Part shown: one piece after another, positions 92 to 54,261 of the stretch
Layout of the letters: each line of letters opens with the position of its first letter
Numbering within the stretch: the stretch's first letter is position 1
Assembly: GCA_049675585.1 (NCBI GenBank)
Contig: JBAUAJ010000035.1
Location: 4,198 to 68,197 of the forward strand
Length of the DNA stretch: 64,000 nt
From: Thermoplasmata archaeon
GTDB taxonomy: Archaea > Thermoplasmatota > Thermoplasmata > Lutacidiplasmatales > UBA184
Direction: 5' to 3'
Program-made: the position numbers and the translations under genes
The notes under the pieces: model-generated
Databases searched by the model: none
The model's input: the letters and a program-made list of their open reading frames with translations, nothing else
What the model was told of the DNA's origin: nothing

Positions 92-3000
92 TCAGGCGCT
101 GGGGCGGGCGATGGGAACGCCGGCCGCGATCGGGGATTCGCCGCGGGGGGCCAAGGCCGGTGATGTCGCGGATGCCGTCGGGCCGAGGCCGACCGGCTGC
201 AGTAGTATCGACGGGGAGAACGTGACCGAGACGGTCACCGGCCCGCCCACTACGAGGAATGTACCCGAGGGGTGGGAGGCGACGTAGCCTGCGACGGCTC
301 CGAGGGTGTAGGAGTATGAACCGTTCGGGAGATCGAACACGAGCGTCGGGGTGTTGCCGGAGACGGTGGTCGATCCGACCTTCACGCTCCAGGTCGCCGC
401 GAGATGGCCGGTGGTTCCCGCGAGCGCGATCCCGGTCTCCTTGAAGGTGACCACATACGACCCCTGCGAGTAGACGACCGAGACGACCTGCGATGCGCCG
501 GCCACCGTCACGGAACCGGAGGCGGGAACGACGGAGTACCCCGATACAGAGCCGACCGAGTACGCGTAGGTCCCGTTTGTCTCGTAGAAGAATATCGACG
601 AGTGAATCGACCCCTGGGTCACTCCCCCGAGTGTCACGGACCAGGAACTCCCCGCGGGCAGCCCGCGTTCGCTGAACGCCACTTCGAACACGACTGCCGA
701 AAAGAGAAGCGTCGGTTCGTTCACCGGCGCCCCCGAGACCGTCACCGAACCGGAGTAGGGAAGCGTCGCTTGATGCCAACCCGTGAGACGTCCGATCGAG
801 TACGCGAACGAGCCGTTCGGCTCGGTGAGTATGAGGACGTCGGTACCCCCGTCGGTCGTCAGCGACCGGGTCGTTCCCGCCAAGGTGACGGAGAACGTCA
901 GACCAGAAAGCAGCCCGCTTTCGGAGAACTCAACCGAGTAGGCGGTTTGTGTGAAAATCACCGTCACGGTAACCCCGGAACCGGCGACCCCCACCGACCC
1001 GGAACGGACGGCGGCGTGGTACCCCGGGACCCCGCCGATCGAGTAGGTGTAGGTTCCGTTCGGCTCCGAGAACGATATGCTCCCCGCCGTCGAGCTCGAG
1101 AGAGCCCCCTGCAGGGTCACCGACCAGAGAGTCCCGGAAGGGAGTCCCGATTCGGTGAAACTGACGGGGTAGGTGACCCCCCCGAAGACGAGGGTCGGCT
1201 CGGTGACGGTCGCACCGTTGACCGTTACGCTCCCGTGGTACGGGAGCGTGGACTGGTGCCAGCCCGGAACATCGGCGATCGAATACGAGAAACTCCCGTT
1301 CGGCTCGGAGAAGCCGACCGAAGCGCCCGTCGTGCTCCGGGCGGCCCCGTTGAGCGTCACCGTCCATGTCGTGCCGCTCGGGAGCCCGCTCTGCGCGAAC
1401 GAGACGGTGTAGACTACCGGAGTGAAGACGAGCGTCGGCTCGAGCACTGCGGCGCCGTTCACGAGCACCGATCCGTGATACGGGAGGGTCGATTGATGCC
1501 ATCCGGGAACTCCCCCGATCGTGTAGGCGAACGTTCCGTTCGGCTCGGTGAACCCGATCGGGTCGGTTCCCCCGTCGGTCGTCACCGTTTTCGGTACGCC
1601 GTTCAAGGTCACACCAAACAGCGTGCCCGACGGAAGCCCCGACTCGGAGAATCCGACCGAGTACGCGACCTGGGTGAATCGGATCGAAATGGGGTTCGAC
1701 GAGCCGGAAACCGTGACCGATCCGGAGGAGGGTGCCGGCGAGTATCCGGCGACCGCCCCTACGGTGTAGCTGATCGACCCGTTCGGCTCGGAGAACGCGA
1801 TCGATGGGGTCGAGGAGCCGAGCGTCGTCCCTCCGAGCATCACCGACCACGGGGTGCCACCGGGCAAGCCGGTCTCTGAGAACGTCACGGGGTAGGTGAA
1901 TGCGGCGAACGCGAGGGTCGGCTGGGTGACGGGGCTCCCGGCGACCGTCACGCTGCCCGAATAGGGCAGGGTGCTCTGGTGCCAGCCCGCGATCGGCCCG
2001 ATCGAGTAGGTGTACGTTCCGTTCGTGAGGACGAACGTGAGGCCATCGGTCGCTCCGTCGGTGGTTCGTGATTGTGCGCTTCCCCCGACGGTCACCTCGA
2101 ACGTCTGCCCGGAGGGAAGGCCGCTCTCCGAGAATCCCACCGAGTACGTCGCCGGGCCGAACGAGATCCCGACGAGGATCGAAGCCCCGGCGATCGTGAC
2201 CGTGCCGGAGTGCGGCGTCGCGTGGAATCCTGCGACCGGCGTTATGGAGTACGATTCCGTCCCGTTCGGCGCGGAAAAGCTGATCGTGGTACCCACGGTA
2301 GATTGCAGACTCCCCCCGAGGGTTACCGACCAGGACGACCCCGTCGGGAGGCCGGTCTCCTGGAACGCGACCGAGTACTCCACGGGAAGATACTCGAGCG
2401 TCGGCTCGGCGAGTGCCGCGCCCGTGACGGTGATCGTCCCGCTGGCTGGGAGGGTCGACTGGCTCCAGCCGGCGACGTTCGCGATCGTGTAGAGGTAGGT
2501 CCCGTTCGGTTCCCCAAACGATAGGGTGTCCGTCCCCCCGGTGGTCGTCAGAGACTCCGCTATCCCGTTCAGCGTCACGCCGAACGATCGGCCCGCCGGA
2601 AGGCCACTCTCGGCAAAGCTGACCGTGAATCCAGCGGCCGAGAACGACACCCCGACCGGGACGGCCGCCCCGGCGACAGTGACCGAACCGGCCGACGGGG
2701 TCGAGCGGTACCCCGGCACCGCTCCGAGCGCATAGCCGTAGGTGCCGTTCGGTTCGGCGAACGAGATCGTGGAGGTCGAGGAACTAAGCAGTGTGCCGGC
2801 GAGAGTCACAGACCAGATAGTCGACGTCGGAAGGCCGCTCTCCGTGAATGTGACAGAATAACTGACCGGCGAGAACGTGATGCTCTGGCCGATCGGTGCA
2901 CCGTTCACCTTGACGGTACCCGATCCCGGAGCGGGATGGTACCCCGACGCACCGCCCACGCGGAAGTTGTACGTTCCGAACGGCTCGTGGACGACGATGG

Positions 3001-5515
3001 TAGATGCGGAGGAGCTGAGGGTCGTCGGATTGGAGCAGACGCTCCCGCTGACGGCGCAGCCCGCGTCGCCGGGGGCGGGAGTGAGCGTCACCGACCAGGG
3101 AGTCGACGCGGGAAGTCCGGACTCCGTGAAGGTCGCGGCGTACGTGAGAGTGTTCCGGGTGAAGTTTCCGGCGTCGAGGACCCCCCAGCCGGTCGCGAGG
3201 TCGTAACCGGGTTTGGCCTCGTAGGCGGCCGCCAGCCCGCCGGCGTCCGTGTAGGTCGTCACATCGTAGAACGACGACAGCGTGAGCGACCCGCCGAACT
3301 GTTTCTGGCCCAGCGGGTAGATCGCCGGGTTGAGGTACCCCACCCAGCCTTCGTGCTGGGTGAAGAGTGCGTGATCCACCGTGGCGATCTCGCCGCCTGC
3401 GATCTGGTCCGCAATGCTCGTACCCACGAAGTACGTCGCTCCCACGATCGGCGCGGAGCCATGGCTTGTCCCGACGGCGATCGACGAGACGGCCGCGCAG
3501 CTCGAGGAGACCCAGCAGGTGAAATTGAGGGAGTACGGACCGGCCTCGAGGTCGATGATCGTATCGTTCGCGATCGCCGAGAGGTCCGGCTCGGCGCGAT
3601 AGTTGCCGGATCGAACCGCGTTGGCGACCGATTGGGCGTCCGCCGACGCGTTGAACCACGTGGCCCGATAGTACGTGGTCGACGTCGCGACCCCGCCCGT
3701 TCCGCCGTACGTGCTCGAGAAGCCGTCGACCTTCCCCGCCGGCTCATACCAGCCGATCTCCCCTCGGCCGACCCCGTAGTACGGGGCGGCGGCCGAAGCG
3801 AGATGGGGCGGGCCGCGCAGCAACGTCGTCGTATTGAGAGCGACGGTGGTTCCCCCGACTGCCACGGTACCGAACGTGTTCCCGCCGAGCTCTGCCGGTG
3901 GGGCGATGGCCGTCCCCCCGTCCCCGCTCGCGCCGAGGACGGTGATCCCCCGAGCCTGGGCAGCCTTGAGATCGGTGGTGAACGCCGCCGGGAGGGCGCC
4001 CGAGGTCGTCCAGGAGTTCGTGATCACGCTCACGTTCGTCAGATCCTTGACGTTTGCCGCGGTGTCGAACCCCCCGGTCGACGAGAACGCGCCGGTGGTC
4101 GGGCTCAGGATGTCCGCGAGCACCGTGTCGATCGCGGTGGTGGAGGCGGAGCCGCCGAACACCTGGAAGACGTTCGCCCCGGGTGCCATCGCTCCGAGCA
4201 TGTCGACGTCCAGGGTGTTCTCGCCCTCGGCCTCGCCGTCGTCGCACGACGAAGAGTATCCCTGCGAACCCGCCGGATAGGCGTACGTGTACCCTGTGAT
4301 CGGCAACGACACGGCCCGAGGCATCGGCTCGCCCGCGGGCAGGGAGTACTTCCAGAACGACGTCACGTCCGGCATGAAGAAGTCCCACGCCGACGCCGCG
4401 CTCTGCGTGATCGTGGAACAGAAGTAATTGAACAGCCCGGACGAGCCGCACGTCCCGATGTTGGCGTGGCAGATCGGGTCGGTCCAGAGCACGGCCGCGA
4501 CGGTCGCGTTGACCGGGTAGCCGTACTTCTGGAACACTCCGGTCTCATTGTAAGCGACTTGCAGGTCGGGCGCCTCAAGGAGGCTGCCGCAGTCGTTGGT
4601 GTCGCACGTTCCCGACTTCCCCTTGAGATTGAGCACGACGGGGCGGTCGTAGGTATTCGTCAGACCGTTCGACGTCACGGAGGTGCTCCCGAACGGGTTC
4701 CCCGTTTGTCCAGGGGATATGGATGAATCGGGGCGGACCAGAGGAGAGATCGCCGGGATCGCGCCGCCAGTGGCGGCGTCCCCGGCGAGCGCGGCGGGTA
4801 GCGAGGCGAGCGGCGCCAGATGGTTGAGGTACTCGGAATAGTTGCTCAGGCCCTCGACGTCCACTACGAACGGATGAAGGGGCGCTGGAAGCAGAGGGGG
4901 GGATCGGGGGGCGTAAAACGGCTGGTCCGTCCCCGAAACGTACGCCCCGAGCGTCGTGTGGAAGATCGAGGTCACCTGGGCGGGGGTCGCCGCGAATGAT
5001 ATCGCGAGCCGGTCGGAATGGGTGGTGAGTTGCGTGACACCATAGGAGGAGAGGTACTCGACCAACGAGTTGTAGACCGGGGCGGACGCTCCGAACTGGG
5101 CGTTAAACTCCGTCGCCGTGAGGTACTGGTGGTATTCTGGAGACGACGGATTCGACAAGGCCGCGAGAAGTTCGTTGAGGCGCGACTCGTTCGTGAAGGA
5201 AAGAGTGAGCAACAGGTCGATCGTCCCGGTCGGATCCGCGGGAGTTCGTAGGACGGGGGCCCCGAGGTACATCGCCCCGGGAAGACCGATTCCGGGCTCA
5301 GAGTAGGGGGCGACGACCGTGGGAGCGGCCCTCAGTTCGGAGGGAGTCAGGTCGAAACCCGGGCTGGCCCCGGCGGCCGATAGTGCGGGCCGAGCTCCCG
5401 ACTCGCGGTTCAGCGCGTTGACCCCGCCCGCCCCAAGGACGAAACTGGCCGAGATGCAGACCGCCAACGCGACCGCCACGGCATGCCGACTCCACCCCAA
5501 CGGCTCGGTCCCCAC
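92..5515 (-). CDS. Secreted sedolisin-like serine peptidase (S53 type) with a pro-kumamolisin-like propeptide and about 12 C-terminal FxESGLPxGxxWSVTL modules
   Basis: 1807-aa ORF. Signal-like N-terminus MGTEPLGWSRHAVAVALAVCISASFVLGAGG. Propeptide-like LLAALSNPSSPEYHQYLTATEFNAQFGAS. Active-site-like motifs GENTLDVDMLGAMAPGA, ITVLGASGDGG and YFVGTSIADQIAGG. The last ~1000 aa are tandem modules. Confidence 0.8.
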   Translation of the reverse strand: MGTEPLGWSRHAVAVALAVCISASFVLGAGGVNALNRESGARPALSAAGASPGFDLTPSELRAAPTVVAPYSEPGIGLPGAMYLGAPVLRTPADPTGTIDLLLTLSFTNESRLNELLAALSNPSSPEYHQYLTATEFNAQFGASAPVYNSLVEYLSSYGVTQLTTHSDRLAISFAATPAQVTSIFHTTLGAYVSGTDQPFYAPRSPPLLPAPLHPFVVDVEGLSNYSEYLNHLAPLASLPAALAGDAATGGAIPAISPLVRPDSSISPGQTGNPFGSTSVTSNGLTNTYDRPVVLNLKGKSGTCDTNDCGSLLEAPDLQVAYNETGVFQKYGYPVNATVAAVLWTDPICHANIGTCGSSGLFNYFCSTITQSAASAWDFFMPDVTSFWKYSLPAGEPMPRAVSLPITGYTYAYPAGSQGYSSSCDDGEAEGENTLDVDMLGAMAPGANVFQVFGGSASTTAIDTVLADILSPTTGAFSSTGGFDTAANVKDLTNVSVITNSWTTSGALPAAFTTDLKAAQARGITVLGASGDGGTAIAPPAELGGNTFGTVAVGGTTVALNTTTLLRGPPHLASAAAPYYGVGRGEIGWYEPAGKVDGFSSTYGGTGGVATSTTYYRATWFNASADAQSVANAVRSGNYRAEPDLSAIANDTIIDLEAGPYSLNFTCWVSSSCAAVSSIAVGTSHGSAPIVGATYFVGTSIADQIAGGEIATVDHALFTQHEGWVGYLNPAIYPLGQKQFGGSLTLSSFYDVTTYTDAGGLAAAYEAKPGYDLATGWGVLDAGNFTRNTLTYAATFTESGLPASTPWSVTLTPAPGDAGCAVSGSVCSNPTTLSSSASTIVVHEPFGTYNFRVGGASGYHPAPGSGTVKVNGAPIGQSITFSPVSYSVTFTESGLPTSTIWSVTLAGTLLSSSTSTISFAEPNGTYGYALGAVPGYRSTPSAGSVTVAGAAVPVGVSFSAAGFTVSFAESGLPAGRSFGVTLNGIAESLTTTGGTDTLSFGEPNGTYLYTIANVAGWSQSTLPASGTITVTGAALAEPTLEYLPVEYSVAFQETGLPTGSSWSVTLGGSLQSTVGTTISFSAPNGTESYSITPVAGFHATPHSGTVTIAGASILVGISFGPATYSVGFSESGLPSGQTFEVTVGGSAQSRTTDGATDGLTFVLTNGTYTYSIGPIAGWHQSTLPYSGSVTVAGSPVTQPTLAFAAFTYPVTFSETGLPGGTPWSVMLGGTTLGSSTPSIAFSEPNGSISYTVGAVAGYSPAPSSGSVTVSGSSNPISIRFTQVAYSVGFSESGLPSGTLFGVTLNGVPKTVTTDGGTDPIGFTEPNGTFAYTIGGVPGWHQSTLPYHGSVLVNGAAVLEPTLVFTPVVYTVSFAQSGLPSGTTWTVTLNGAARSTTGASVGFSEPNGSFSYSIADVPGWHQSTLPYHGSVTVNGATVTEPTLVFGGVTYPVSFTESGLPSGTLWSVTLQGALSSSTAGSISFSEPNGTYTYSIGGVPGYHAAVRSGSVGVAGSGVTVTVIFTQTAYSVEFSESGLLSGLTFSVTLAGTTRSLTTDGGTDVLILTEPNGSFAYSIGRLTGWHQATLPYSGSVTVSGAPVNEPTLLFSAVVFEVAFSERGLPAGSSWSVTLGGVTQGSIHSSIFFYETNGTYAYSVGSVSGYSVVPASGSVTVAGASQVVSVVYSQGSYVVTFKETGIALAGTTGHLAATWSVKVGSTTVSGNTPTLVFDLPNGSYSYTLGAVAGYVASHPSGTFLVVGGPVTVSVTFSPSILLQPVGLGPTASATSPALAPRGESPIAAGVPIARPSA
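150..3150 (-). repeat. In-frame tandem coding repeat, period about 240 nt (about 12 units, two alternating subtypes)
   Basis: The string ccgttcggctcggagaa and close variants recur at about 1056, 1298, 1538, 1780, 2262, 2503 and 2744. At protein level, ~77-aa (WSVTL...GY) and ~84-aa (TTDGGTD...GWHQSTLPY) units alternate. Confidence 0.8.
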
Positions 5516-6830: not shown

Positions 6831-9800
6831 ATGAAATCGAAAGCACTGGTGGTAGCGATTGTCGTTCTCGCGGTCGTGGGCTGGATGGGGGTGGGGGCCG
6901 CAACGCTCGCGGCGGGCCCGGTGAGCACCGCGTCGCATGCGCCGCCGGTATCGACGGCTTCGGCGACTCCTTCGGCTCCGGCTTCCGCGACTCCGTCGTT
7001 GGTCTCACCGTCACTCGGAGCGGGAAGCAACGTCGCGGCGACGATGGCCGAGAATGCGATCTCCGCCACGCGCGCGGCCGGTCTCAAGTCGAACGTGGTG
7101 TTCGTGCCGCGCCCTTCCGCGACCATGTCGCAGATCGAAGCGACCAGCGCCTCCGGGGTCGTCCAGCCCCTCTACACGGGAGATCCGGCCCCGCTCGGGG
7201 TGGCCTACTACGGTCTGAGCGGTACCGGCACGGGGCCGCTCCACGGGACCGTGTTCAACACGACGGCGGTGCGGGGAATCGTCTCCGCCAATGCCACGGG
7301 GATCCAGGGACAGGACCTGTACCAAAGCTCTCCCGACAGCTACGGAATTCAGCTCAACTCAGTGATGACCAACGTACACCTGTTCGGGACGAAAGGGTTT
7401 GAGTTCTGGACGCAGAATGTCATGGAATTCTATCCCGCGGCCGGTGAGATGGTCCTCGTTACGAACATCTGGAACTTCTCGGGCGGTTCGTATCACGGGA
7501 ACGAATTCTACTCCCAGAGTGTCGTCGGCGGAGCGGTCGACGACTTCGGAGAGTACGGTGCGCTCGGCTACTACTATGCGGAGTACATCGTCCCGATGCC
7601 GATCTCCTATCCGTTCAACCTGACCCTCACCATGAACTCCGGGGTGGACGGAGGCCGGAACAACATGAGCTTCAGCGTCTCGCTGACGAGCTCCACGATC
7701 CCCTCAGAGGACTTCAACCTCCCCAACTGGGACTCGATCGTGTTCAACTCGACTGAGCCTCTGGGGACTCCGTTGACCTATCCGTCGAACTACACAGCGG
7801 ACGGGCTCCATTACAATCCGATCGGGCTCACGAACGACTTCGAGCTCGACATCTGCGGACCGGGCGGAGGAAGCCAGGTCGACTTGGACGCCGCGGATGC
7901 GTCGCTCGGGCTCGCCTACTACACCGGGAGCGGATTCGCCAGCGTCCCCGCCGCGTTCAGCTACGGCGGCGAGACTGGTGAGACGGCAACCGGTGCCAAC
8001 GTCGCCTGGAGCAACGCCGCGGGCGGACCCGGCGGACTGGCGGAGTACGGCACGGCGACCACCGGACCCGGGCTCCTCACCGGATTGTGGGGCACAGGGG
8101 CGCCCGAAGGCTCAGACGCGGTCGATCTCGCGGTCTCTCCAGGCAACGCGTTCAACTTCCTGACGTACAGCGGGACCGTCGGCTTCACGACGCCGATCGT
8201 CGCCGAGGCGGCGTACGCCCCGAGCATGTTGACGCAGACGTTCTACCTGATGCCGGGAACGTACCAGCTCCTCACGGAGCTCGCCGACTATGCGCTCGTC
8301 AACCAGTCGATCTCGGTCGCCGGTCCGATGACCGTCCCCGTGTCGCTCTCGAGCGACATGGCGGCCGGGGTCTACACTCCGCTCTGGGCGTTCTCCAATG
8401 CGGAGGTCGCCAGCCTGGCGCAGAGCGGGGCGGGAACGCCATCGAGCCCGTACATTCTGGACAACAACCAGCTCGCTCCGTTGTCGAGCAGCTTCGGTTT
8501 GTACAACGATTACGTCTTCCCAGTCTATCCGGGCGTCTTCCTCTACGGAACTACCGTCACGGTGGAGCTGTACCACGCCCCCAGCTTCCAGACCTCGACG
8601 AGCACGTTCCAATATCCGGGACAATATCTCCCCCAGTACAACGATCTGCAATTCTGGTTCTGGGGGGTTACGGGAGCTTCGATCGTGGACGCCGCCAACA
8701 TCAGCGGTTGGTTCGGGGGCAATGCGTTCTACCCGCTCGTGTTCGACACGTTCAACGTGATCTTCTACGAGTCGGGCGGCAACCTGGTCGCCGGCAACAC
8801 GTTCGACACCCCGGGCGAGGCGCTTCTGATGTTCGCGGGCGGCGGGGTCTTCTACCCACCGCTGAACATCGGCGGCGGAAACAACACCGTCTGGGGGAAC
8901 ACGTTCAACGAAGTGAACAACCCGGCGGGCTGCGTCGACACGTCGCCCTGCCTGGGGCTGATGTCCCCGGCGTTCGGCGTGGCGGTCGAGATCGGGGAGT
9001 CGAACGACGTCGTCTACAACAACTACGTCAACACACCGACGACCGCGTGGCTGCTCCCGTTGAACCTCTACTCAGGGTACCCGGACTTCTTCGCGGGCAC
9101 GGAGTGGAACATCACCCCACAGCCGGCGACGAACGTCCACTTCGCCTCCGGCTTCCCGACGCTGCCCCTCACCGGGAGCATCATCGGGGGCACGACGCAG
9201 GGGGGTAACTTCTGGTGGGACTACGGCCTGATCGCGAACCCGTACAACGGAGCCGACAACCCCTACGGGGTGCTGCCGTACGACGAGAACGCGATCACGC
9301 TGGTGATCGAGATCTACGGTCCGTCGTACTACTACCTGTCGTACATCTACGGCGGGGGAGACTACGCGCCGCTCGTCCCGACGCTGGGGCCCGCGGTCAC
9401 GTTCGTCGAGCACGGACTCGTGCCGGGCACGATGTGGGGCGCCGACGTCAACGTGGGCGGCCTCGAGGTCGGCTTCGAGACGACGTCAAACTTCGAGACG
9501 CTCAGCGTGTTCGGCGCGCCGGGCCACTACGTCTGGTTCGCGGCCCCGCCGCCCATCGGGTACACCTCGCACTCGACCGGAACGGTCCGTCTGACCGACC
9601 ACCCGATCACGGTCGGGGTCGTCTTCCACGTCGCCCCGGGCTACTCGCTCCTGAAGGTCCGCGAAAGCGGCCTGCCCTCGGGGAGCGCCTGGAGCGTCGT
9701 CGTGAACGGAACGACGCCGGCCACGGATGCGTTCAACACCACAGCTACGACGAACAGCTCGTCCGTTACGGTGCTGGTCTTCGACGGAACGTACGACTTT

Positions 9801-10247
9801 ACGGTGCCGTCGGTCCCCGGCTACTTCCCGAGCCCATCGTCGGGGTCGCTCGCGATCACCGGTGGCACGACGCTTCACGTCCGGTTCCACATCGTGACGT
9901 ATGCGCTCGTGTTCAGCGAGACCGGGATCCCCGCCGGCCGCAGCTGGAGCGTTCGGATCACGGGGCCGGTCACCGGAGGCCGCACGGTCACCCGCACGCT
10001 GAGCTCGCGCGGAAGTTCGATCACCTTTGAGGTGCCGAACGGAACGTACTCGTACACCATCCTGCCGGGCGCCCACACCGTTTGCGTTCCGAACACGGGT
10101 TCGCAAGCGATCAGCGGTGCCGGAGCGACAGTCACGACGATCTGCGTCTACTCGGGCGGCCACGTGCCGGCGCACCCGCTCGTCGTATCGGGGGGCTCCG
10201 CGGCCGCCCTGGTCCGCCTCGCGGCGGTGCGGGGACCTTCGGCGTAA
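6831..10247 (+). CDS. Secreted thermopsin-like peptidase (A5 type) with C-terminal FxESGLP modules
   Basis: Signal-like MKSKALVVAIVVLAVVGWMGVGA. DPAPLGVAYYGLS and GIQLNSVMTNVHLFGTKGFEFWTQNVMEF resemble thermopsin family motifs as I recall them. Modules include KVRESGLPSGSAWSVVV and VFSETGIPAGRSWSVRI. ATG 6780 lies inside an AT-rich TATA-like stretch, so 6816 or 6831 is preferred as the start. Confidence 0.65.
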   Translation: MKSKALVVAIVVLAVVGWMGVGAATLAAGPVSTASHAPPVSTASATPSAPASATPSLVSPSLGAGSNVAATMAENAISATRAAGLKSNVVFVPRPSATMSQIEATSASGVVQPLYTGDPAPLGVAYYGLSGTGTGPLHGTVFNTTAVRGIVSANATGIQGQDLYQSSPDSYGIQLNSVMTNVHLFGTKGFEFWTQNVMEFYPAAGEMVLVTNIWNFSGGSYHGNEFYSQSVVGGAVDDFGEYGALGYYYAEYIVPMPISYPFNLTLTMNSGVDGGRNNMSFSVSLTSSTIPSEDFNLPNWDSIVFNSTEPLGTPLTYPSNYTADGLHYNPIGLTNDFELDICGPGGGSQVDLDAADASLGLAYYTGSGFASVPAAFSYGGETGETATGANVAWSNAAGGPGGLAEYGTATTGPGLLTGLWGTGAPEGSDAVDLAVSPGNAFNFLTYSGTVGFTTPIVAEAAYAPSMLTQTFYLMPGTYQLLTELADYALVNQSISVAGPMTVPVSLSSDMAAGVYTPLWAFSNAEVASLAQSGAGTPSSPYILDNNQLAPLSSSFGLYNDYVFPVYPGVFLYGTTVTVELYHAPSFQTSTSTFQYPGQYLPQYNDLQFWFWGVTGASIVDAANISGWFGGNAFYPLVFDTFNVIFYESGGNLVAGNTFDTPGEALLMFAGGGVFYPPLNIGGGNNTVWGNTFNEVNNPAGCVDTSPCLGLMSPAFGVAVEIGESNDVVYNNYVNTPTTAWLLPLNLYSGYPDFFAGTEWNITPQPATNVHFASGFPTLPLTGSIIGGTTQGGNFWWDYGLIANPYNGADNPYGVLPYDENAITLVIEIYGPSYYYLSYIYGGGDYAPLVPTLGPAVTFVEHGLVPGTMWGADVNVGGLEVGFETTSNFETLSVFGAPGHYVWFAAPPPIGYTSHSTGTVRLTDHPITVGVVFHVAPGYSLLKVRESGLPSGSAWSVVVNGTTPATDAFNTTATTNSSSVTVLVFDGTYDFTVPSVPGYFPSPSSGSLAITGGTTLHVRFHIVTYALVFSETGIPAGRSWSVRITGPVTGGRTVTRTLSSRGSSITFEVPNGTYSYTILPGAHTVCVPNTGSQAISGAGATVTTICVYSGGHVPAHPLVVSGGSAAALVRLAAVRGPSA

Positions 10248-11146: not shown

Positions 11147-13288
11147 GTGAGTAGCGTGAGGGCTCTGAATTCAGTCGCGAAGGGAGGCTCCCGAGTACGA
11201 CGGAACGGTGCGGCCCGAGGAGTGCTCTGGGTCGCCCTCCTGGTGCTCGCGCTCTCGTTGACCGCCCTCCTGCCGGCCACCCAGGCGGCCCCGCTGAGCA
11301 CTCCGAGGACGCTCACTTCCGCGCCGGTCTCCGAACTCTCCACTCCCATGGCCGTTCGGGCGCCTTCCGCGGTAGCGGAGATGCCCCTCATCCCGGCGTC
11401 GGACCCCGCGCTCCCCCAGGTGCTCGCCTCCGTGAACGTCGGATCCGGTCCGACGCTCGCGGTCTATGACCCTGCGACGCAGGAGGTCTACGTGGTCAAC
11501 GCTATCTCGAACACCGTCAGCGTGCTGAACGGGACCGCCGTCGTGGCGACGGTTCCGTTGGGCACCACGAACCTCACCGTCGGCGACCCGGTCGCGGCGG
11601 TCTACGATCCGAGCAGTGGCTACGTGTACGTGGTGGACCGGTACCTGTTCGAAGAGAGCGGTGGGGCGGTCAGCGTGATTCACGGGACGACGCTCCTTCT
11701 GGTCATCCCGATCGGCCTCGAACCCTCGGGCGCCGCGTATGATGCGTCGAACGGCTTTCTCTACGTTACGGAGAGCACCACCGGCCATGTCGCGGTGATC
11801 GACGGCACGGGGACGATCGCGAACCTCGCCGTCGGAACCGACCCGGGCGCCGTGATCTTCGACCCGGCGGACGGGATGGACTATGTGGCGAACCGGGCTT
11901 CGGCGAACCTGAGTGTGCTTTCGGGGGTATCGGTCGTCGGGACGGTCGGCGTGGGGACTCAACCGGCCGCCTTCGCCTTCGATCCGTTGTCCGGGGCGGT
12001 CTACGTTGCCAACAATCAATCCGGGAACGTCACCCTGGTGGTCGGTCTCTCCGCGGTCGGAGATGTCACGACGGGTACCAATCCGTCGTTTGCCCTGTTC
12101 GAACCATCCAACGGCTACGTCTACGTCTCGAACCGGAATTCGAGCGACGTGAGCCTGATCGACGGCACGAGCGTCGTCACTTCGGTCCCGACGGCCGCCG
12201 GGCCGGCGGGGTCGGCGTTCAACGCCGCCACGGGCCTCGTCTACATCGTAGACACGGTCTCGAACGAGGTCACGGTGCTGGACGGGACGGTCTCCCTCGG
12301 CAACATCAGCGTGGGGAACGGCCCATCGTCGGCGACGTGGAACTCGGCGAACGCCGACGTCTACGTGACGAATTCGAACTCGCACAACGTGAGCGTCATC
12401 GCGGCAGCGTACTATGTGACGTTCAACGAATCCGGCCTGCCCCCGGCCAGCCCATGGTCGGTGGACCTCGGTTCGAAGACCAGCTCCACCACGGGGCCGT
12501 CGATCCGGTTTGCGAATCTTCCGGGGACCTACGTCTACACGATCGTGGCCCCGCCCGGTTACCACGTCGTCTCCGCGACCCCGGCCTCTCCCCTGACGGT
12601 CTTCGATGTACCCGTCGTCGTGTCGGTGGTTTTCGCGCCGACGAAATCTTCGGCGACGTACGATCTCACCTTCGTCGAGACCGGCTTGGGCTCGCGCTGC
12701 AGTCGGTCTTCGTTCGAGTGGAGCGTCACTGTCGGCAACTCCACCCAGAGCTCGACCAACAGCACGATCGTGTTCGTCGAGCCGAACGGGACGTACAACT
12801 ACTCCGTCTCCGGGCCGAGCGGTTACTCGGTCGTCTCCGCGACCCCCGCTTCCCCAGTGACGATCGCCGGTGCACCCGTGACGGTCAACGTCACGTTCAG
12901 CCGGTGCGGTGAGGGTGGGAGTTCGACGTTCACCCTCACGTTCGAAGAGCGCGGGCTGCCCGGCGGCACGACCTGGTGCGTGAACATGAGCGGTTCCCAC
13001 TGCGCGAGCTCGGATCAGATCTCGATCTCGGGACTTTCGAGCGGAACGTACTCGTTCGCGGTCGTCCCGGTGAACGGATACACCGCCCGCCCGTCCTCGG
13101 GGTCGGTGACGATCTACGACCGAAGCATTACCGTCGAGATCCGTTTCGACTCGTCCGGCTCCTCCCACCACTGCGGTGGGGGCGGCGGTGGCAGTGGGGG
13201 CGGCGGTGGCGGTGGGGGCGGCTGGGGCGGCGGAGGCGGCGGCTGGTCCTCTGCCCAATACGATCGAGCGGCCCTCGCTCGGGATTGA
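11147..13288 (+). CDS. Secreted YVTN-type beta-propeller repeat protein with three FxESGLP-type modules and a Gly-rich tail
   Basis: Signal-like LWVALLVLALSLTALLPATQA. About 40-aa repeats with YDPxxGxVYVxNxxSNxVSVI. Modules YYVTFNESGLPPASPWSVDL, LTFVETGLGS and LTFEERGLPGGTTWCVNM. Tail HHCGGGGGGSGGGGGGGGGWGGGGGGW. Confidence 0.75.
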   Translation: MSSVRALNSVAKGGSRVRRNGAARGVLWVALLVLALSLTALLPATQAAPLSTPRTLTSAPVSELSTPMAVRAPSAVAEMPLIPASDPALPQVLASVNVGSGPTLAVYDPATQEVYVVNAISNTVSVLNGTAVVATVPLGTTNLTVGDPVAAVYDPSSGYVYVVDRYLFEESGGAVSVIHGTTLLLVIPIGLEPSGAAYDASNGFLYVTESTTGHVAVIDGTGTIANLAVGTDPGAVIFDPADGMDYVANRASANLSVLSGVSVVGTVGVGTQPAAFAFDPLSGAVYVANNQSGNVTLVVGLSAVGDVTTGTNPSFALFEPSNGYVYVSNRNSSDVSLIDGTSVVTSVPTAAGPAGSAFNAATGLVYIVDTVSNEVTVLDGTVSLGNISVGNGPSSATWNSANADVYVTNSNSHNVSVIAAAYYVTFNESGLPPASPWSVDLGSKTSSTTGPSIRFANLPGTYVYTIVAPPGYHVVSATPASPLTVFDVPVVVSVVFAPTKSSATYDLTFVETGLGSRCSRSSFEWSVTVGNSTQSSTNSTIVFVEPNGTYNYSVSGPSGYSVVSATPASPVTIAGAPVTVNVTFSRCGEGGSSTFTLTFEERGLPGGTTWCVNMSGSHCASSDQISISGLSSGTYSFAVVPVNGYTARPSSGSVTIYDRSITVEIRFDSSGSSHHCGGGGGGSGGGGGGGGGWGGGGGGWSSAQYDRAALARD
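13175..13246 (+). repeat. (GGN)n simple-sequence tract encoding a poly-Gly tail
   Basis: ggtgggggcggcggtggcagtgggggcggcggtggcggtgggggcggctggggcggcggaggcggcggctgg. The antisense frame reads as poly-Pro. Confidence 0.8.
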
Positions 13289-20668: not shown

Positions 20669-23600
20669 GTGGGCCTGAATCGTCCGGTCCTGCTGACAGC
20701 TATCGCGACGGTCGTCGTCCTTCTTCTGCTCCCAGGCTCCGGGTTCGGGGAGCTCTCGGCCCACTCTGCGAATTCGGCCCCCGCGCACGCCGCCATCGCC
20801 TCCTCGGGCACCTCCCCTGCGAATGCTCGAGTCGCCGAGATAGAACAATCCCTTCGCGCAGATCACATTCCCGCTTCCGACATTCATCTTCCGAATCTGC
20901 CCGGGGCGCACCCCGGGCGCGCCGGGATCGTCGGCCCATCGTACGAAGTCGCCCCGGCGCCGATGGGCATCGCGGACCTGGGCCTCATCAACCGCTCCGG
21001 CACCCTCGAGCCGACGGTCCTCAGCACTTCGAGCGTGGAAGGGACCGCGTCGATCGAGACCGCCCAGTCGGTCTACCTCGACGGCGACACTCCCGACATG
21101 TTCGGCGTTCAGATGAACGCCGTCGCGACCGGGGTCGAGCTCAGGGGACAGCCGGGATTCCAGTTCTGGGCGCAGGACTTCTTCAGCTACACGTCGAGCA
21201 CCGGTTCCCTCTCGTTCGGGGATAACCTGTGGAACTTCTCGAACGCGGCCGCCCTGTTCCCCGCGAACTCTCTCTACTCGCACGGACCGAACGGGACCCT
21301 CGTCGCTCCGATCTTCTACTACGCCACGGGACCGACCTTCACGGTGCACTATCCGTTCTCGGTGACGTTCGCGATCAACGCCGCGGTGATCGCCAAGCGC
21401 CCCGCGATCTTCTTCAACTACACGGTCGCCTCCCCGACGCTCAACACCTCGGGGTCGTTCGACGAGGTCGTCTTCAACTCCGCCCGGATACCGATACCAG
21501 TTCTAGCCGCTCCTCCCCCCCTCTTCCAGGCGAACGGGACCGGGTACGACCCGGTGGGACTCCCCAACGACCTCGAGCTGGTGCTGGTGGGTAACGGAAA
21601 TGGGGACACCACTTCGTTCGTCCGCCTGCACGCCGCGTTCTCGCTCTCCACCTGGAACTCGACGGCCGCGAAGTTCGAGCCCGTTGCGTCCGCCTACGAC
21701 GCCGGCTCGGACACGGGAGAATCCAGCAACGGCGTCGCGGTCTCGTACAACACGACCGGTGCGGGTGCCACGATCCCGCAAGCTGTGCTGCAGGTCGGGC
21801 CTTCGTTCCTTCACGGTCTTTGGAACTATTCGAACAACCCGGGATATCGGACCGTTTCGGCGAGCGTCCTCCCGGTCAACTCCTTTTTGTTCGTCTCCCC
21901 GGGGAACTCCCTCGGCCCGAACGTCGCCCAGTGGGTGCCGACCCTCGCGTTCACGACGGGACCCGAGATCATTCCATTCCCGAACGGAGGGAACTACTAC
22001 TTCGAGTGGATACTCAGCGACTACCGTCCGGTCCATCGCTCGCTCAATCCGGCGGCCAATGCGACGGCCACGGTCACCGCGACCCTGATCCGAAGCAACG
22101 CGCTCGGCGTCTACACTCCACTGATCGCCTGGGGGAACGCCCAGTTGCCGGCGATCGCCGCCTCCGGGACGGGCACCGTCGCCAGCCCGTACGTGCTGGA
22201 CGCGAACCAGAATCATCCGATCAGCGAGTTGTTCGGGGCGATGAACTTCTTTTTCTTCCCGGTATTTCCCGGCATACTGCTCATCGGCACGGACGCATCG
22301 GTCCGCGTCACCCCTTCGAGCCTCGCGATCACGTACTCGGCCGCCGTTGCCGCGAACCTCTCCACGGTGGGCCTGCCGTCCTCCAACCACCTGCAGATCG
22401 AGTTCTGGAACGTCGAGAACGCGACGCTCACGGGCGCCCCGGGGATCTCGGGTTGGCTTTCGTCGAACGTCGGGTTCAGCCCGCTCGCCGCGGTGCTCTT
22501 CTGGGGCGCAGACGGAAACCTGATCGCGGACAATACGTTCTACGACCAGGGGAACTCCCTCGCATTTTACGGGGGCTCGAAGAACACGGTGTGGGGCAAC
22601 ACCTTCCTCGACTCGACCGCACCGGCGACGAACCAGAGCGCGGTCGAGAACTCCGGGAACAACACGACCGGGATCTGGGAGTCGGAGTCCAACGACCTCG
22701 TCTACAACAACTACTTCGCCGTGCCCGCGCCGGCGTACACCCCGACGATCGACGCAGCCTCCTGCCAGATCGTCTGCCAGACCGTGGAGTACCGGGACGT
22801 CTGGAACGTCACCCGTGCGCCCGCGGACACCGTCCGTCAGGTCCTGGGCACGAACCTCTCGGGGAGTGTCATCGGCACAAGCTACCAGGGGGGCAACTAC
22901 TGGTCGAACTACGGGACCGCCTCGAACCCACTCGGTCGCCTTCCCTACAACGACAGCGGCCGGATCACCTTCGACGGGGATTACGTGCCGCTCGTTCCCT
23001 CGAAAGCGTACCCCGTCACGGTCGCCGAGCTCGGGCTCGCTCCGGGGGTCGTCTGGGGGGTCGACGTCGCCGGGATCGATTACCGCACGAACCAAACCCT
23101 GCTCACGATCTACGCCGCGAACGGAACGTACAACTACTCCGTGCTTGAGCCGGTCGGCTACACGGCCCCATCGACCGGCAACTTCACGATCAACGGGACC
23201 GGCACGGGAGTGTCGATCGACTTCACGGCGCTCGTGGCGCTCCTCTTCACCGAGACCGGGATCGTCGCGGGCTGGAGCTGGAACGTCACGATCGTATCCG
23301 AGAATACGACGGAGAACGGGACCGTGAACTCGACCAACGCTTCGATCGTCTTCGAGGTCGAGCCGGGCCTTTACAACTGGAGCGCGAGCTCGTACGGTTA
23401 CAACGCGACCCCTGTCAACGGGACGGTCGGCGTCGGCCCGGCGGGCACCGAAGTACCCCAGATCGTCTTTTCCCTCTATTCGATCGTCGTCTTCACCGAG
23501 ACCGGTCTGCGCGCCGGGACACCGTGGACGGTCGTGGTGACGGGCGGCACGAATCCCGAGCAGTTCACGAGCTTCGCGGCCCAGCTCAACCTCACGATCT

Positions 23601-35066: not shown

Positions 35067-35108
35067 CGGTCCCCCGGTTCAATCAATGGGTCGCTACGGC
35101 TCTTAATC

Positions 35109-36279: not shown

Positions 36280-36291
36280 TCCGGAGCTCCG

Positions 36292-43156: not shown

Positions 43157-43238
43157 TCCACCGTGGCGCGCCGCCCGGACCGACGCCCCCCGACAACGGC
43201 AGAAAGAGGTCATAGGGCGAGGGCCGTTCCCGACTTCG

Positions 43239-43946: not shown

Positions 43947-44057
43947 CGACAGTTCCGCTCGCGCTGCGGTTCTAACGAACCGTTAAAGACGGCCGGCGGC
44001 ACGCCCTATCCCCGTGGACCTCTCGCCGCCGGTGGACCGCCCGAAGGTGAGTTCCCG

Positions 44058-51072: not shown

Positions 51073-54000
51073 TCAGGGAGGTCGGTGGTAAGGGTCGTCC
51101 GTAATCGCCGAGGGGGAAGGATTCTCCGAGGAGCGACGCCGTCGCAACAGGACGACCCCGACGGCGGCACCGATGCCAATCAGGATGCCCAGGCCGATGC
51201 CACCGAAGAGCGGTTCGACCCAAGGATTCTGAGTCGGGAGGGCCTGAGCCGAGAAGGAAACCGCGACGGCCGACCCGCTTCCGACAATCGCGACGGAACC
51301 GAACACGCGCGCCGGGGAATAGGAAGACACTCCGAAGATGGAGTAGGTCGCGGTACCGTTCGCCACCTCGAACACGATGCTCGCCCCGGTGGAGTAGTTA
51401 ACGGTCGACCCAACCCATACGCTCCAATTCGCTCCCACCGGAAGACCCGACTCCGAGAAGGTGAGTGCATAGAGAACTTGCGAGAAGACGAGGGTCACCT
51501 CGATCACCGAGCTCCCCGCGACCAGGACGCTTCCCGTATGCGGCAGCGTCGTCTGATGCCAACCCCCAAGGTCGCCAATCTCGTAGGCGTAGGAGCCGTT
51601 CGGAACCGAGAAATCGACCGTCGGAGCAGTGGCGCTGAGGATTACGCCGCCCAAAGTGACCGTCCAGGAGGTCCCCTCAGGTAGGCCCGACTCGAGGAAT
51701 TCGACCGAGTACGTTACGGCGGTGTACTCGAGGGTAGGTAGGGTAACACCCGCCCCGTGGATCCCCACGGTGCCGGTGGCCGGCAGGGTCGACTGGCGCC
51801 ACCCGGCAACTCCGGAAATCGCATAGGGAAGCGTCCCGTTAGGCACGGAAAGAACGAGTGAATCGGTCCCGCCGGTGGTCGTGAGCGTCTCCTCCGTTCC
51901 CGCGAGGGTGATCCCGAAGGTCAGTCCGGCTGGGAGCCCGGACTCCTTGAATGTGATGCCGTAGGTCACGGCGGTGAAGTCGATCGTTACGAGCACACTC
52001 GTGGCGGCGACGTCCACGGCGCCGCTCGTCACGTTCTGCGAGTACCCCGCAACCCCCGGAATCGTGAACGGAAGTGTGCCGTTCGGCTCCGAGAACCAGA
52101 TGGTAGGCGTGCTCGATGTCTCGCGGACCGTGCCGACCTTGACGGACCAGCTCGTACCGCTCGCGAGGCCCGACTCGATGAACCGGACCGGGAAGGTGCT
52201 CTCGAAGAACTGCAGGTCGACTACATCGCCTATCCCAGAACCGTTGATCGGTTGCGAGTCCCCGTTCACCACGAGCCGGCCCGTGTAGGGCTCGGACGAT
52301 TGGTGCCAACCCGCGATCGGAAGAATCTGATAGAAGTACGAGCCGTTCGCGAGGTCCGTCCAGGTGAGAGTGTCGGTACCTCCGTCGGTGGTAATGCCCT
52401 GCGGAGTTCCCGCCACGAACGCCGAAAATTCAAGCCCCGCCGGGAGCCCGGATTCCGATATCGTTACAAGATATGCGACGGGGAAGAACTGGAGCGTCGG
52501 CTCGAAGAAGTAGTATGAGTTGTTGCTCGTTCCGTTGGCCGAGAGGTTCAACGTTCCGGAGAACGGTAGGGTCGACTGGTAGTATCCGCGGACAGGACTG
52601 ATCGAGTAATTGTAAACTCCGTGCGCCTCGTAGAACACGACCTCCCCGAAACTGCCGTTCCTCAGCAAGCCGTTGAGAGTGACGGACCAACTGGAGTTGA
52701 ACGGCAGCCCTGACTCCTGGAAGACGGCAACAACCTCGACTGAGAAGTTCATCGTAGGGAGCGCCACCGAGGAGCCGTTGACCAGAACCGTCCCGTTGAG
52801 CGGTACCGGAGCTTCCGTCCAGGCAGGGAATGGGACGCCGGATCGTTCGAGGCCGAGAATCGCATACGTGTAACTTCCGTTGAGCTCTAGGAACGTCATC
52901 GACCGCACGGTGGTGCTCAGATTGGTTTTTCCCAGCGAGGCCGACCAGCTCCACCCGGCCGGAACTCCCGATTCGGAGAAAGTTACATTGAAGAACGCGC
53001 CGTACCCGAGCACACTGACCGAGTCGATCTCCGAATCCATCGCGTAGAGGTACTGGTTGGACGGATCGTACTGGATCCCGAACGCGGGCGAAGGAAGCGG
53101 GACCGTCTCAAGAACTTCGGTCGAATTGATGACCGTTAGTCCGGAGTAATTCCCGGCCAACACCAGGTCCCCCGTGGCCGCGTCGAAGGCGGCCGCGTAT
53201 GGTCGGATCGGTATCGTCACGTTGCCTGCTAGGGCCGTCCCCTCGAGGATGGATACACGGGAGACAGAGGAGTTGCCGATGCCGGAGTTTGCCACGTAGA
53301 CCGCCCCGGAAATGGAGTCGAACACCGCCGGTCCTAGACCTGACCCGACTTCGACTGTGGCCACAACTGTGGTCCCGTTGAGCAGGGTGAGGTTTCCCGA
53401 TCCCTGGTCGACGACCACCATGTACCCATCGCTCGGATCGTACGTCAACGAGGTGGGAAAAGCGTCGACCGGGAGGGTCACTGTTCCGACTAGGGAAGTG
53501 CCGTTGATGATCGACACGAGGCTGACGTCCCCGGTCACCGTTGCGTAGACGTCCCCGTCCGCGGCGTCGTACCCGAGAGCATACGGGGCCCGGTTCGCCC
53601 CACCCACCAGCACGGAACCGGCGATGGTGGTGCCGTGGATGACCGTCACGTTTGATCCCCCGTAGTTGGCCACGTACACATCCCCGTCAGCCGGGTCGTA
53701 GAGAATAGACGTAGAGTAGGCCCCCGTCGACAGATTTCCGATGTCTTTCGTTCCGTTGATGATCGTCACGTTGTAGGAGTTCGAATCGTCTACGTAAACG
53801 AACCCATCCTGGGGGTCGAAGACCGCGCCGATCGGCCCCGAACCCACCTGAATTCTCTCGACTAGCGTCGTGTTGTTGAGCAGATGCACTCCGGTGCCCC
53901 CCGAATCCTCGACGTACACTTCTCCGTTCCTCGGGTCCACGAGAGCCGCCGTGGGAAACGAACCAACGGTGATGGTAGCCAGGACTCCGAGCTGACGCTC

Positions 54001-54261
54001 GAAGCCCGCGGGGTGTGCGTGGAGCCCCGGGAGGGACCCGGCCGATAGGATCCCCGCCGCCGTCGGCACCAACGATCTCGGTCCTAGGTTATCCCCTGGA
54101 GTGGCCGCCAGCGCAGCCGAGGGGCCAGCGACTCCCACGGTGGTCGCCTGAGGAGCGGCCCGCACCCCCCCTTGAGATGCGCTGAGCGAGCTGAACAGTA
54201 GGAGAAGGAGCAAGAACACCGATCCGAAAACGCGGCCGATTGGTCGTGCCGGGGTATGCAT
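51073..54261 (-). CDS. Membrane-anchored YVTN beta-propeller protein with about 7-8 FxESGLP modules
   Basis: Signal-like MHTPARPIGRVFGSVFLLLLLLFSSLSASQG. YVTN-like repeats. Modules VTFSESGVPAGWSWSASL, VFQESGLPFNSSWSVTL, ITFKESGLPAGLTFGITL and VEFLESGLPEGTSWTVTL. C-terminal TM GIGLGILIGIGAAVGVVLL. GGAGG lies 8 nt upstream of the ATG. GC3 is visibly lower than in the left-hand paralogs. Confidence 0.75.
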   Translation of the reverse strand: MHTPARPIGRVFGSVFLLLLLLFSSLSASQGGVRAAPQATTVGVAGPSAALAATPGDNLGPRSLVPTAAGILSAGSLPGLHAHPAGFERQLGVLATITVGSFPTAALVDPRNGEVYVEDSGGTGVHLLNNTTLVERIQVGSGPIGAVFDPQDGFVYVDDSNSYNVTIINGTKDIGNLSTGAYSTSILYDPADGDVYVANYGGSNVTVIHGTTIAGSVLVGGANRAPYALGYDAADGDVYATVTGDVSLVSIINGTSLVGTVTLPVDAFPTSLTYDPSDGYMVVVDQGSGNLTLLNGTTVVATVEVGSGLGPAVFDSISGAVYVANSGIGNSSVSRVSILEGTALAGNVTIPIRPYAAAFDAATGDLVLAGNYSGLTVINSTEVLETVPLPSPAFGIQYDPSNQYLYAMDSEIDSVSVLGYGAFFNVTFSESGVPAGWSWSASLGKTNLSTTVRSMTFLELNGSYTYAILGLERSGVPFPAWTEAPVPLNGTVLVNGSSVALPTMNFSVEVVAVFQESGLPFNSSWSVTLNGLLRNGSFGEVVFYEAHGVYNYSISPVRGYYQSTLPFSGTLNLSANGTSNNSYYFFEPTLQFFPVAYLVTISESGLPAGLEFSAFVAGTPQGITTDGGTDTLTWTDLANGSYFYQILPIAGWHQSSEPYTGRLVVNGDSQPINGSGIGDVVDLQFFESTFPVRFIESGLASGTSWSVKVGTVRETSSTPTIWFSEPNGTLPFTIPGVAGYSQNVTSGAVDVAATSVLVTIDFTAVTYGITFKESGLPAGLTFGITLAGTEETLTTTGGTDSLVLSVPNGTLPYAISGVAGWRQSTLPATGTVGIHGAGVTLPTLEYTAVTYSVEFLESGLPEGTSWTVTLGGVILSATAPTVDFSVPNGSYAYEIGDLGGWHQTTLPHTGSVLVAGSSVIEVTLVFSQVLYALTFSESGLPVGANWSVWVGSTVNYSTGASIVFEVANGTATYSIFGVSSYSPARVFGSVAIVGSGSAVAVSFSAQALPTQNPWVEPLFGGIGLGILIGIGAAVGVVLLRRRRSSENPSPSAITDDPYHRPP
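51290..52990 (-). repeat. In-frame tandem FxESGLP-module repeats
   Basis: Protein-level repeats from about residue 425 to 990 of the 1062-aa product, again mixing WSVTL-type and TTDGGTD/GWHQS-type units. Confidence 0.7.

Follow-up and report, generated by a model that had tools for sequence, protein, structure and literature searches.

The B repeats of the staphylococcal MSCRAMM proteins SdrD and UafA hold a ligand-binding region at a distance from the cell surface; those of SdrD are approximately 110 residues long, and several Ca2+ sites within Asp-rich loops make them rigid. Tandem DUF11/CLIPPER repeats form stalks in archaeal and bacterial fibrillar adhesins, often without a recognizable co-occurring domain (PMC12617251), and surface proteins of Methanosarcina, as cited in PMC10354927 from Jing et al. 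(2002), combine a YVTN propeller with PKD and beta-helix domains. Cryo-tomography published in 2025 found that Cuniculiplasma and Oxyplasma have no S-layer and are instead covered by a dense, unordered “exterior protein layer” of ~20 nm, probably glycoprotein, whose proteins were not identified in that study (PMC12448462). Here, we analyze a 64,000-nucleotide stretch of a Thermoplasmata archaeon (contig JBAUAJ010000035.1, positions 4,198 to 68,197; “the window”), in which six genes, called g1 to g6 in their order along the DNA, encode large proteins that share a repeated module of about 77 residues. We consider, with a probability of roughly 0.7, that this module serves as a stalk, or spacer, that separates a functional head from the membrane.

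Detection of the module and its predicted fold

The six open reading frames (ORFs) encode long proteins rich in Ser, Thr, Gly, and Val, in which repeated segments are visible by eye. The pattern [FVIL]-x-[EQ]-x-G-[LIV] marks 12, 3, 3, 1, 3, and 7 positions in g1 to g6, respectively, at a spacing of 75 to 94 residues across the six proteins, with an alternation of 77 and 84 residues in g1. A profile hidden Markov model (HMM) built from the alignment of these units and searched against all six frames of the whole window found the same numbers in the same genes, giving 29 copies, whose individual independent E values (i-E) range from 1e-15 to 1e-29. Elsewhere in the six frames, nothing scored better than an E value of 0.8. 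The first-pass annotation of this DNA had placed the module in these six genes at coordinates and by motifs that the translations confirm, but its estimate of over 30 copies was too high. Of the three or four copies that it gave for g5, three were recovered, and the apparent fourth (amino acids [aa] 1035 to 1088) is another, PEGA/CarboxypepD_reg-like domain that is itself below threshold; in g6, where seven or eight had been proposed, the HMM finds seven.

HMMs from which one gene at a time had been left out recovered all copies of the omitted gene (worst i-E, 5e-8 at Z = 1000), and 300 shuffled proteins scored no more than 6 bits. The definition of the repeats is therefore not circular, and chance or low-complexity similarity can be ruled out. 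The copies thus align significantly when tested, as the earlier reading had presumed.

That reading had found no named family for the module, and the libraries agree. Pfam-A (2025 copy) and NCBIfam release 20 contain no model for it, whether whole proteins were scanned or single units and arrays, the latter even at an E value of ≤10. Among PDB chains, none matched significantly by sequence: the window profile reached an E value of 0.19 at best, and a broader profile of 83 sequences reached 0.029, to 9vo5_B, a SpaA-like protein of prealbumin fold. Arrays gave weak, summed sub-domain matches to DUF5979 and NOMO1-like_1st, likewise of this fold class. Their matches to DUF1214, DUF7055, CCL2-like, MtrC-MtrF_N, Fn3_arc, and CopC were below threshold, covered 20 to 50 residues of one or a few units, and were rejected as compositional noise. 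CARDB (PF07705), which labels one arCOG of related proteins, has no match on units or arrays at an E value of ≤10, and Flg_new_2 (PF18998, the divergent InlB B-repeat) has none in the window proteins or units. PF18998 is on record for one relative (P0006); the GYxF-x-W signature of this family occurs there in a segment of its own, which precedes the module.

Structure prediction gave very confident beta sandwiches both for a single unit and for a pair of the A and B subtypes described below. The AlphaFold2 model of the single unit, made from the alignment of 29 copies, has eight strands and a predicted local distance difference test score (pLDDT) of 97.7. The A-B pair was modeled with a pLDDT of 96.2 and a predicted template modeling score (pTM) of 0.73, with two residues between the last strand of the first unit and the first strand of the second. 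In Foldseek searches of the PDB, the single unit matched members of the prealbumin/transthyretin-like fold class with template modeling (TM) scores of 0.6 to 0.75. These included CnaB2 (8bdw; 0.63), the B domains of SdrD and UafA (0.66 to 0.75; UafA, 0.68 to 0.75), the transthyretin-like domain of carboxypeptidase D (0.65 to 0.73), and the middle domain of rhamnogalacturonan lyase. With the pair model, the A2-A3-B1-B2 region of SdrD was the top match (E value, 1.8e-5), alongside the stalk of the Bacillus anthracis TIE protein (E value, ~2e-5) and followed by streptococcal and lactobacillar pilins and SpyCEP. These models suggest that the module is an eight-strand beta sandwich of ~77 residues in the prealbumin/transthyretin-like class, a fold that would strictly be prealbumin/CnaB-like and not immunoglobulin.

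Conservation was assessed in 1,814 copies aligned from the 150 best representatives of the wider family. Conserved positions are F5 (90%), E7 (87%), G9 (94%), L10 (95%), W16 (97%), N38 (82%), G39 (94%), T/S40 (87%), Y41 (79%), Y/F43 (94%), G58 (89%), and F73 (71%), a core-plus-turns pattern centered on what appear to be core aromatics and turn glycines. Charged residues are nearly absent from the module (K, 1.0%; R, 1.3%; D, 1.6%; H, 0.8%), and cysteine makes up 0.14%. Lysine does not exceed 4.5% in any alignment column, and E7 and N38 are conserved without a partner lysine, which rules out a Lys-Asn/Asp isopeptide cross-link.

N38-G39-[ST]40 forms an N-glycosylation sequon, at one hairpin, in 78% of the copies. 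Of the copies with Asn at position 38, 95% have Ser or Thr at +2; for two further N-G turns that recur in the module, the corresponding values are 60% (N21) and 32% (N63). Positions 42 and 44 are variable and alternate with the conserved Y41, Y43, and V45. The latter three most likely face the core, and position 40 would therefore point outward, like 42 and 44. For a constrained but exposed Ser/Thr beside Asn, selection for the sequon would be the best explanation.

The same pattern bears on whether the module could itself serve in binding or adhesion to polysaccharides, to mineral surfaces, or to other cells, with the arrays acting as multivalent adhesins rather than as passive spacers. The strong conservation of E7 and W16 would suit such a function, as would the fold neighbors in carbohydrate-active enzymes (for example, the rhamnogalacturonan lyase domain), weak matches to a pullulanase chain and the pullulanase X25 domain, and array-only proteins that have up to 44 copies and no other obvious functional part. 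However, the conserved sites are mostly alternating aromatic or aliphatic residues and turn glycines, as expected for a core, while presumed outward sites vary freely; copies within one protein are 30 to 65% identical and share no conserved polar patch except E7. Furthermore, the nearest tandem structures are the stalk segments of adhesins rather than their ligand-binding parts, and CARDB lacks a sequence match to the module. Adhesion by the module itself thus seems quite unlikely.

Carrier proteins and the proposed role of the arrays

The coordinates of the carrier genes, units, and heads are given in Table 1. The thermopsin heads recognized at first pass are borne out in g2 and g5, which match PF05317 with E values of 5e-41 (141 bits) and 3.5e-49 (168 bits), respectively, against a Pfam cutoff of 25. 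Of the three proposed YVTN propeller heads, those of g3 (E value, 3e-15; 55.8 bits) and g4 (2e-38; 130.3 bits, six stretches) exceed the TIGR02276 cutoff of 27.85; the propeller matches of g6 are below threshold, and its label comes from homologs named YVTN or YncE. The YVTN-repeat region of g4, at ~660 aa, is long enough for two propellers. The sedolisin assignment of g1 is upheld for the prodomain, which matches Pro-kuma_activ (PF09286; E value, 1.2e-24; 87.6 bits) and, over the same stretch, the prodomain of tripeptidyl-peptidase 1 (TPP1; 4e-8). The expected S53 catalytic domain had no match in the Pfam or PDB sequence search, although a G-T-S-I-A motif is visible in the translation. The label “sedolisin-like” is thus putative and rests on the prodomain and the G-T-S motif.

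The g2 and g5 proteins are paralogs that are collinear, at 31% identity over ~1,000 aa, from the head through the beta-helix region to the last of the three modules. Their shared order of head, helix, and modules is therefore old. NosD (PF05048) matches in g5, and the corresponding region of g2 has no Pfam match of its own. Two further segments follow the modules: a PKD-like one in g4 (PF00801; 19.5 bits, below the cutoff of 23.5) and one in g5 with sub-threshold PEGA/CarboxypepD_reg matches (24.6 versus 32.3 bits; 20.3 to 20.5 versus 20.8 bits).

All six proteins have an N-terminal hydrophobic segment, and the starts chosen for g2 (6831) and g4 (18670) proved a better fit to signal peptides than those of the longest ORFs. 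In g4, g5, and g6, the order is signal peptide, head, one to seven modules, transmembrane helix, and a basic or Pro-rich tail, so that these three have the head, stalk repeats, and anchor of a fibrillar-adhesin-like protein. The earlier suggestion of an Ig-like stalk or spacer is supported in this sense: the array is a predicted beta sandwich nearest to the stalks of adhesins and pilins, and it lies between head and anchor.

As a stalk, the module would fold independently as an extracellular domain, and units would be strung head to tail, each separated from the next by a linker of about two residues, to give a rod. The rod would keep the head, which here is a YVTN propeller or an acid protease of the thermopsin or sedolisin type, at a distance from the membrane, in which g4, g5, and g6 would be anchored by their single C-terminal helix. 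Tight packing of aromatic residues in the core (F5, W16, Y41, Y43, Y51, and F73) would account for stability to acid and proteases; the near absence of titratable side chains would add to acid stability, and a lysine cross-link would play no part. Each unit may carry one N-linked glycan on the N-G-S/T hairpin, which would probably be stabilizing. Arrays have grown as single units and unit pairs were duplicated, and recombination has placed them on many heads. We infer the spacer role, the rigidity, the glycosylation, and the surface location from the sequences and models described above.

Several observations weigh against this interpretation. The likeness to CnaB is at the level of fold: common ancestry with CnaB- or SpaA-type domains is not established, since the best single-domain Foldseek E value is 0.055 and even the broader profile raised the sequence signal just to 0.029. 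The geometry between domains depends on one pTM value, obtained with a shallow, 23-row alignment. Since N-G is a classic pair in beta turns, the conservation at positions 38 to 40 could be partly structural. Finally, g1, g2, and g3 have no detectable C-terminal anchor, and the other reading frames that were searched gave no convincing frameshifted one downstream. A literal membrane stalk is therefore impossible for these three, which might be released or else retained through an N-terminal signal that is not cleaved. The poly-glycine tail of g3 and the R(G)PSA ending common to g1 and g2 could reflect sorting, frameshifts in sequencing, or chance.

Peptidases make up three of the six carriers in the window, and with the structural match to carboxypeptidase D this raises the question of a protease-associated regulatory or folding domain, comparable to the transthyretin-like domain of regulatory metallocarboxypeptidases. 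The range of proteins that carry the module makes such a function highly improbable: it also follows propellers, Kelch domains, hydrolases, and phospholipase C, or occurs alone, in anything from 1 to 44 copies. In g2 and g5, moreover, several hundred residues, including the beta-helix, part it from the catalytic domain.

Table 1. Module-carrying genes, their units and domains, and other features of the window
Feature	Position	Strand	Description
g1	92..5515	-	Putative secreted sedolisin-like (S53) peptidase precursor, 12-unit array; N-terminal hydrophobic signal, no C-terminal anchor
g1 array	206..3142	-	12 units, 74-96 bits each (HMM envelopes)
g1 units 1-6	2861-3142, 2630-2860, 2378-2629, 2147-2377, 1895-2146, 1664-1894	-	B subtype: units 3 and 5
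g1 units 7-12	1412-1663, 1172-1411, 941-1171, 689-940, 458-688, 206-457	-	B subtype: units 7 and 10
g1 prodomain	4841-5248	-	Pro-kuma_activ match
g1 expected catalytic region	~3143-4840	-	S53 not matched in Pfam or PDB sequence search
g1 C terminus	92-140	-	Ends ...R(G)PSA, as in g2
g2	6831..10247	+	Thermopsin (A5) peptidase, region collinear with g5 NosD-like beta-helix, 3 modules
g2 thermopsin	7161-7994	+	PF05317
g2 array	9390..10154	+	Units 9390-9638, 9645-9899, 9900-10154; 55-67 bits each
g2 C terminus	10200-10247	+	Ends ...R(G)PSA, as in g1
g3	11147..13288	+	YVTN beta-propeller, 3 modules, poly-Gly C-terminal tail
g3 array	12410..13159	+	Units 12410-12646, 12659-12910, 12929-13159; 78-82 bits each
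g3 C terminus	13180-13288	+	Poly-glycine tail GGGGGGSGGGGGGGGGWGGGGGGW...
M1 aminopeptidase	13375-15777		Between g3 and g4
g4	15803..18670	-	YVTN-repeat region, 1 module, PKD-like domain, transmembrane anchor, Pro-rich cytoplasmic tail
g4 single module	16256..16492	-	78.9 bits; i-E 7e-20 with g4 left out of HMM
g4 PKD-like segment	16040-16252	-	After module; PF00801 below cutoff
g4 transmembrane helix	15893-15955	-	
g5	20669..24193	+	Thermopsin, NosD-like beta-helix, 3 modules, PEGA/CarboxypepD_reg-like domain, transmembrane anchor
g5 thermopsin	20939-21736	+	PF05317
g5 NosD	22394-22711	+	PF05048
g5 array	23009..23725	+	Units 23009-23236, 23234-23482, 23477-23725; 53-75 bits each
g5 PEGA/CarboxypepD_reg-like segment	23771-23932	+	Directly after modules; sub-threshold
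g5 transmembrane helix	23957-24037	+	
g6	51073..54261	-	YVTN-type propeller, 7 modules, transmembrane anchor, RRRR tail
g6 array	51241..52992	-	7 units, 66-89 bits each
g6 units 1-7	52732-52992, 52474-52734, 52195-52473, 51964-52194, 51712-51963, 51472-51711, 51241-51471	-	B subtype: units 3 and 5
g6 transmembrane helix	51145-51213	-	
Arg/Gly/Pro-rich ORFs	29518-31020, 31753-35082, 35083-37146	-	R 19-23%; GC highest at codon position 1, lowest at position 3
KaiC-like ATPase gene	32361-35066	-	Real gene in the stretch of one Arg-rich ORF; GC at codon position 3 (GC3) 0.89
Triosephosphate isomerase	39587-40411		Adjoins glycogen/starch-type set
Glycogen/starch-type set	40512-45926		GT4/GT5-like glycosyltransferase, GH57 enzyme, GH15 glucoamylase-like enzyme
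Two ORFs of surface-protein composition	54877-55611, 56258-57697	-	S/T/G-rich, K+R ~2-3%; no Pfam match, no module
ORF open at window end	58212-63998	+	At least 1,929 codons; Ser/Thr/Gly-rich, Lys/Arg-poor; signal-like hydrophobic segment near codon 85; no Pfam match, no module

Subtypes, wider family, and neighboring genes

The two forms of the module remarked on earlier, ending in GY or in GWHQSTLPY, are real alternating subtypes. Subtype A has 77 aa with WSVTL and GY; subtype B, of 84 aa, carries F-x-V-T-L together with GWHQSTLPY and has TTDGGTD as an insert; and an intermediate, B', has 80 aa. The changes in B units co-occur: W16 becomes F, the insert is present, and GWHQSTLPY replaces GY. 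After unit 1, the g1 array runs A-B-A-B-A-B-B'-A-B-A, with a period of 161 aa for the alternation, and ends in a variant unit. In the wider family, B accounts for ~1 to 2% of the copies. Its TTDGGTD insert might be a cation site or an inter-unit contact.

The history of the copies can be read from their identities, by which within- and between-gene homogenization were compared. The most similar pair is 65% identical, the mean is 42% within genes and 34% between genes, and the A and B subtypes group across genes rather than by gene. Recent within-gene homogenization is ruled out by these values, and the copies are old. Tandem Repeats Finder detected no DNA-level tandem repeat in g1, and its array is therefore neither a recent expansion nor an assembly artifact. 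The last four units of g6 (A-B-B'-A) are collinear with units 6 to 9 of g1, the sole place in g1 with an 80-residue B' unit; the block aligns without gaps to aa 1208 to 1525 of g1, at 52% identity over 318 aa. That a propeller gene and a sedolisin gene have this four-unit block in common is direct evidence for recombination of array segments and heads. Near-identical DNA to the window was not found among the related loci compared.

When 1.84 billion cluster representatives (50% identity) were searched exhaustively with the HMM, 8,021 carried the module at an E value of ≤1e-3 and 3,625 at ≤1e-30, with 1 to 44 copies per protein. Among the 150 best representatives, many are array-only, mostly with an N-terminal signal, a C-terminal anchor, or both; of the 150, 97 have an N-terminal signal-like segment, and 87 have a C-terminal hydrophobic anchor. 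The heads found in 35 relatives are NHL/YncE or Kelch propellers, thermopsin, pro-kumamolisin, alpha/beta hydrolases, and several DUFs, and one further relative has a phospholipase C head. Together with the three head types in the window and the block common to g1 and g6, this variety agrees with the earlier view that the module has been shuffled between heads. The precomputed Pfam lists of the relatives have nothing for the module, and in public records the proteins are named after the head alone (“YncE family protein,” “YVTN family beta-propeller protein,” and “thermopsin family protease”). The family includes thousands of multicopy proteins, and as neither Pfam nor NCBIfam has a model for it, extended regions in thousands of Thermoplasmatota proteins go by the name of the head or are left as hypothetical; a curated model would mend this.

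When one genome of each GTDB species was scanned with a consensus unit, at least 187 module loci were confirmed, nearly all in Thermoplasmata/Thermoplasmatota metagenome-assembled genomes (MAGs) from mine drainage, peat, soil, and hot springs. The first-pass annotation had called the density within 64 kb unusual. The window is dense in modules, but several related Thermoplasmata genomes hold multiple module loci each, and the expansion is typical of the lineage rather than peculiar to this window. Other carriers are Cuniculiplasmataceae SKW1 (a YVTN head, one module, and a transmembrane helix), a Sysuiplasmataceae MAG, a Nitrososphaerales MAG, and Metallosphaera javensis of the Sulfolobales. 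The carrier from M. javensis J1 (L048 2323-3783) is a protein of 486 aa with a signal peptide, two modules that alternate with two CARDB-like segments (module first; the CARDB-like label was judged by eye), a Thr-rich S/T linker, and a transmembrane helix. M. javensis is a cultured species and would be tractable for experiments on the module. Six loci (L002, L006, L013, L018, L031, and L034) come from records named “MAG: bacterium,” which may be mislabeled or unclassified archaea.

The presence of the module in Cuniculiplasmataceae, its huge expansion in the phylum, and the conserved sequon make the arrays candidates for the exterior layer. It is conceivable, although on balance we doubt it, that proteins with a signal peptide, 1 to 44 units, a transmembrane anchor, and an optional head are major constituents of the ~20-nm layer that replaces the S-layer in Thermoplasmatales, with one N-glycan on each unit. 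If so, the array would be an acid-proof glycan scaffold, a protein-borne glycocalyx that is stabilized by glycosylation and not by the isopeptide bonds or Ca2+ sites of its bacterial structural counterparts. A further step would be to regard the array proteins as building blocks of an outer coat, in which the module serves lateral packing and protection instead of the spacing of heads. A dense, probably glycoprotein layer on Cuniculiplasma and Oxyplasma and the many anchored or array-only relatives would accord with this, as would the taxonomic pattern just described. However, the authors who described the layer saw no “auspicious” highly expressed S-layer homolog by RNA-seq (PMC12448462), and large functional heads in five of the six window proteins fit display better, so that we think a purely structural coat unlikely; it overlaps with a role as a spacer rather than excluding it. 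Either way, the module offers a testable candidate for the question raised in 2025 of which proteins form the layer of Thermoplasmatales that lack an S-layer.

The window, in which no tRNA genes were found, has a GC content of ~0.67 that declines to 0.54 at the 3' end. The first 24 kb (92-24193) hold three secreted acid endopeptidase genes (g1, g2, and g5), two propeller proteins, and the M1 aminopeptidase, and look like a protein-scavenging neighborhood, consistent with the peptidolytic lifestyle described for Thermoplasmatales. Composition and codon-position GC identify the three Arg-rich ORFs as wrong-frame artifacts. The glycogen/starch-type set and the adjoining isomerase have the appearance of an ordinary housekeeping context. 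The ORF that is open at the window end sits where the GC content falls from ~0.67 to 0.54-0.60 and may encode a further giant surface protein or belong to acquired DNA.

Comparison with known surface stalks

Repeated beta-sandwich surface stalks are a familiar design, and in this respect the biology is not surprising. The nearest counterparts by role are the CnaB/SpaA stalks (FbaB CnaB2, the SpaA shaft pilin, and the TIE stalk), which have the same fold class and a similar size and likewise form head-to-tail arrays of varying length that lead from the cell anchor to a functional tip. However, the Cna_B and SpaA HMMs do not match the module proteins, nor units or arrays at an E value of ≤10, and the module has no conserved Lys and hence no isopeptide bond. 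It is archaeal, with a transmembrane helix in place of sortase/LPXTG anchoring and with a conserved N-glycosylation sequon. As an acid-adapted counterpart of CnaB-type domains, it could interest engineers of acid- or protease-stable scaffolds. SdrD, the top tandem structural match, differs from the module in size and in its Asp-rich loops: the module has ~77 residues, 1.6% of which are Asp, and A units have no such loop. An Asp-containing insert (TTDGGTD) is found in the rare B subtype alone, as a candidate cation binder.

The domains of the transthyretin clan, including CarboxypepD_reg (PF13620), PEGA (PF08308), NOMO1-like (PF22898), and domain II of polysaccharide lyase family 4 (PF14686), share the predicted fold of the module and its signature, an x-G-x-Y-x-[YF] hairpin with G-[YFW] after it. 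Their HMMs do not match any of the 29 units, however, and the N-terminal half of the module, F-x-E-x-G-L-P-x-G-x-x-W, is distinctive. The DUF11/CLIPPER repeats are CnaA-like and have an isopeptide bond, whereas the module is predicted to be CnaB/prealbumin-like, lacks isopeptide residues, and has no DUF11 match. The Methanosarcina proteins resemble the carriers described here in their propeller or beta-helix heads, small beta-sandwich repeats, and C-terminal anchor, and g4 even has one PKD-like domain; the module itself is not PKD (no unit matches PF00801 or PF18911), and its lineage is Thermoplasmatota. Overall, the module is a sequence family that is uncatalogued in the libraries searched, has a predicted prealbumin-like fold, and is most likely used as a surface stalk; both the fold and the role are familiar.

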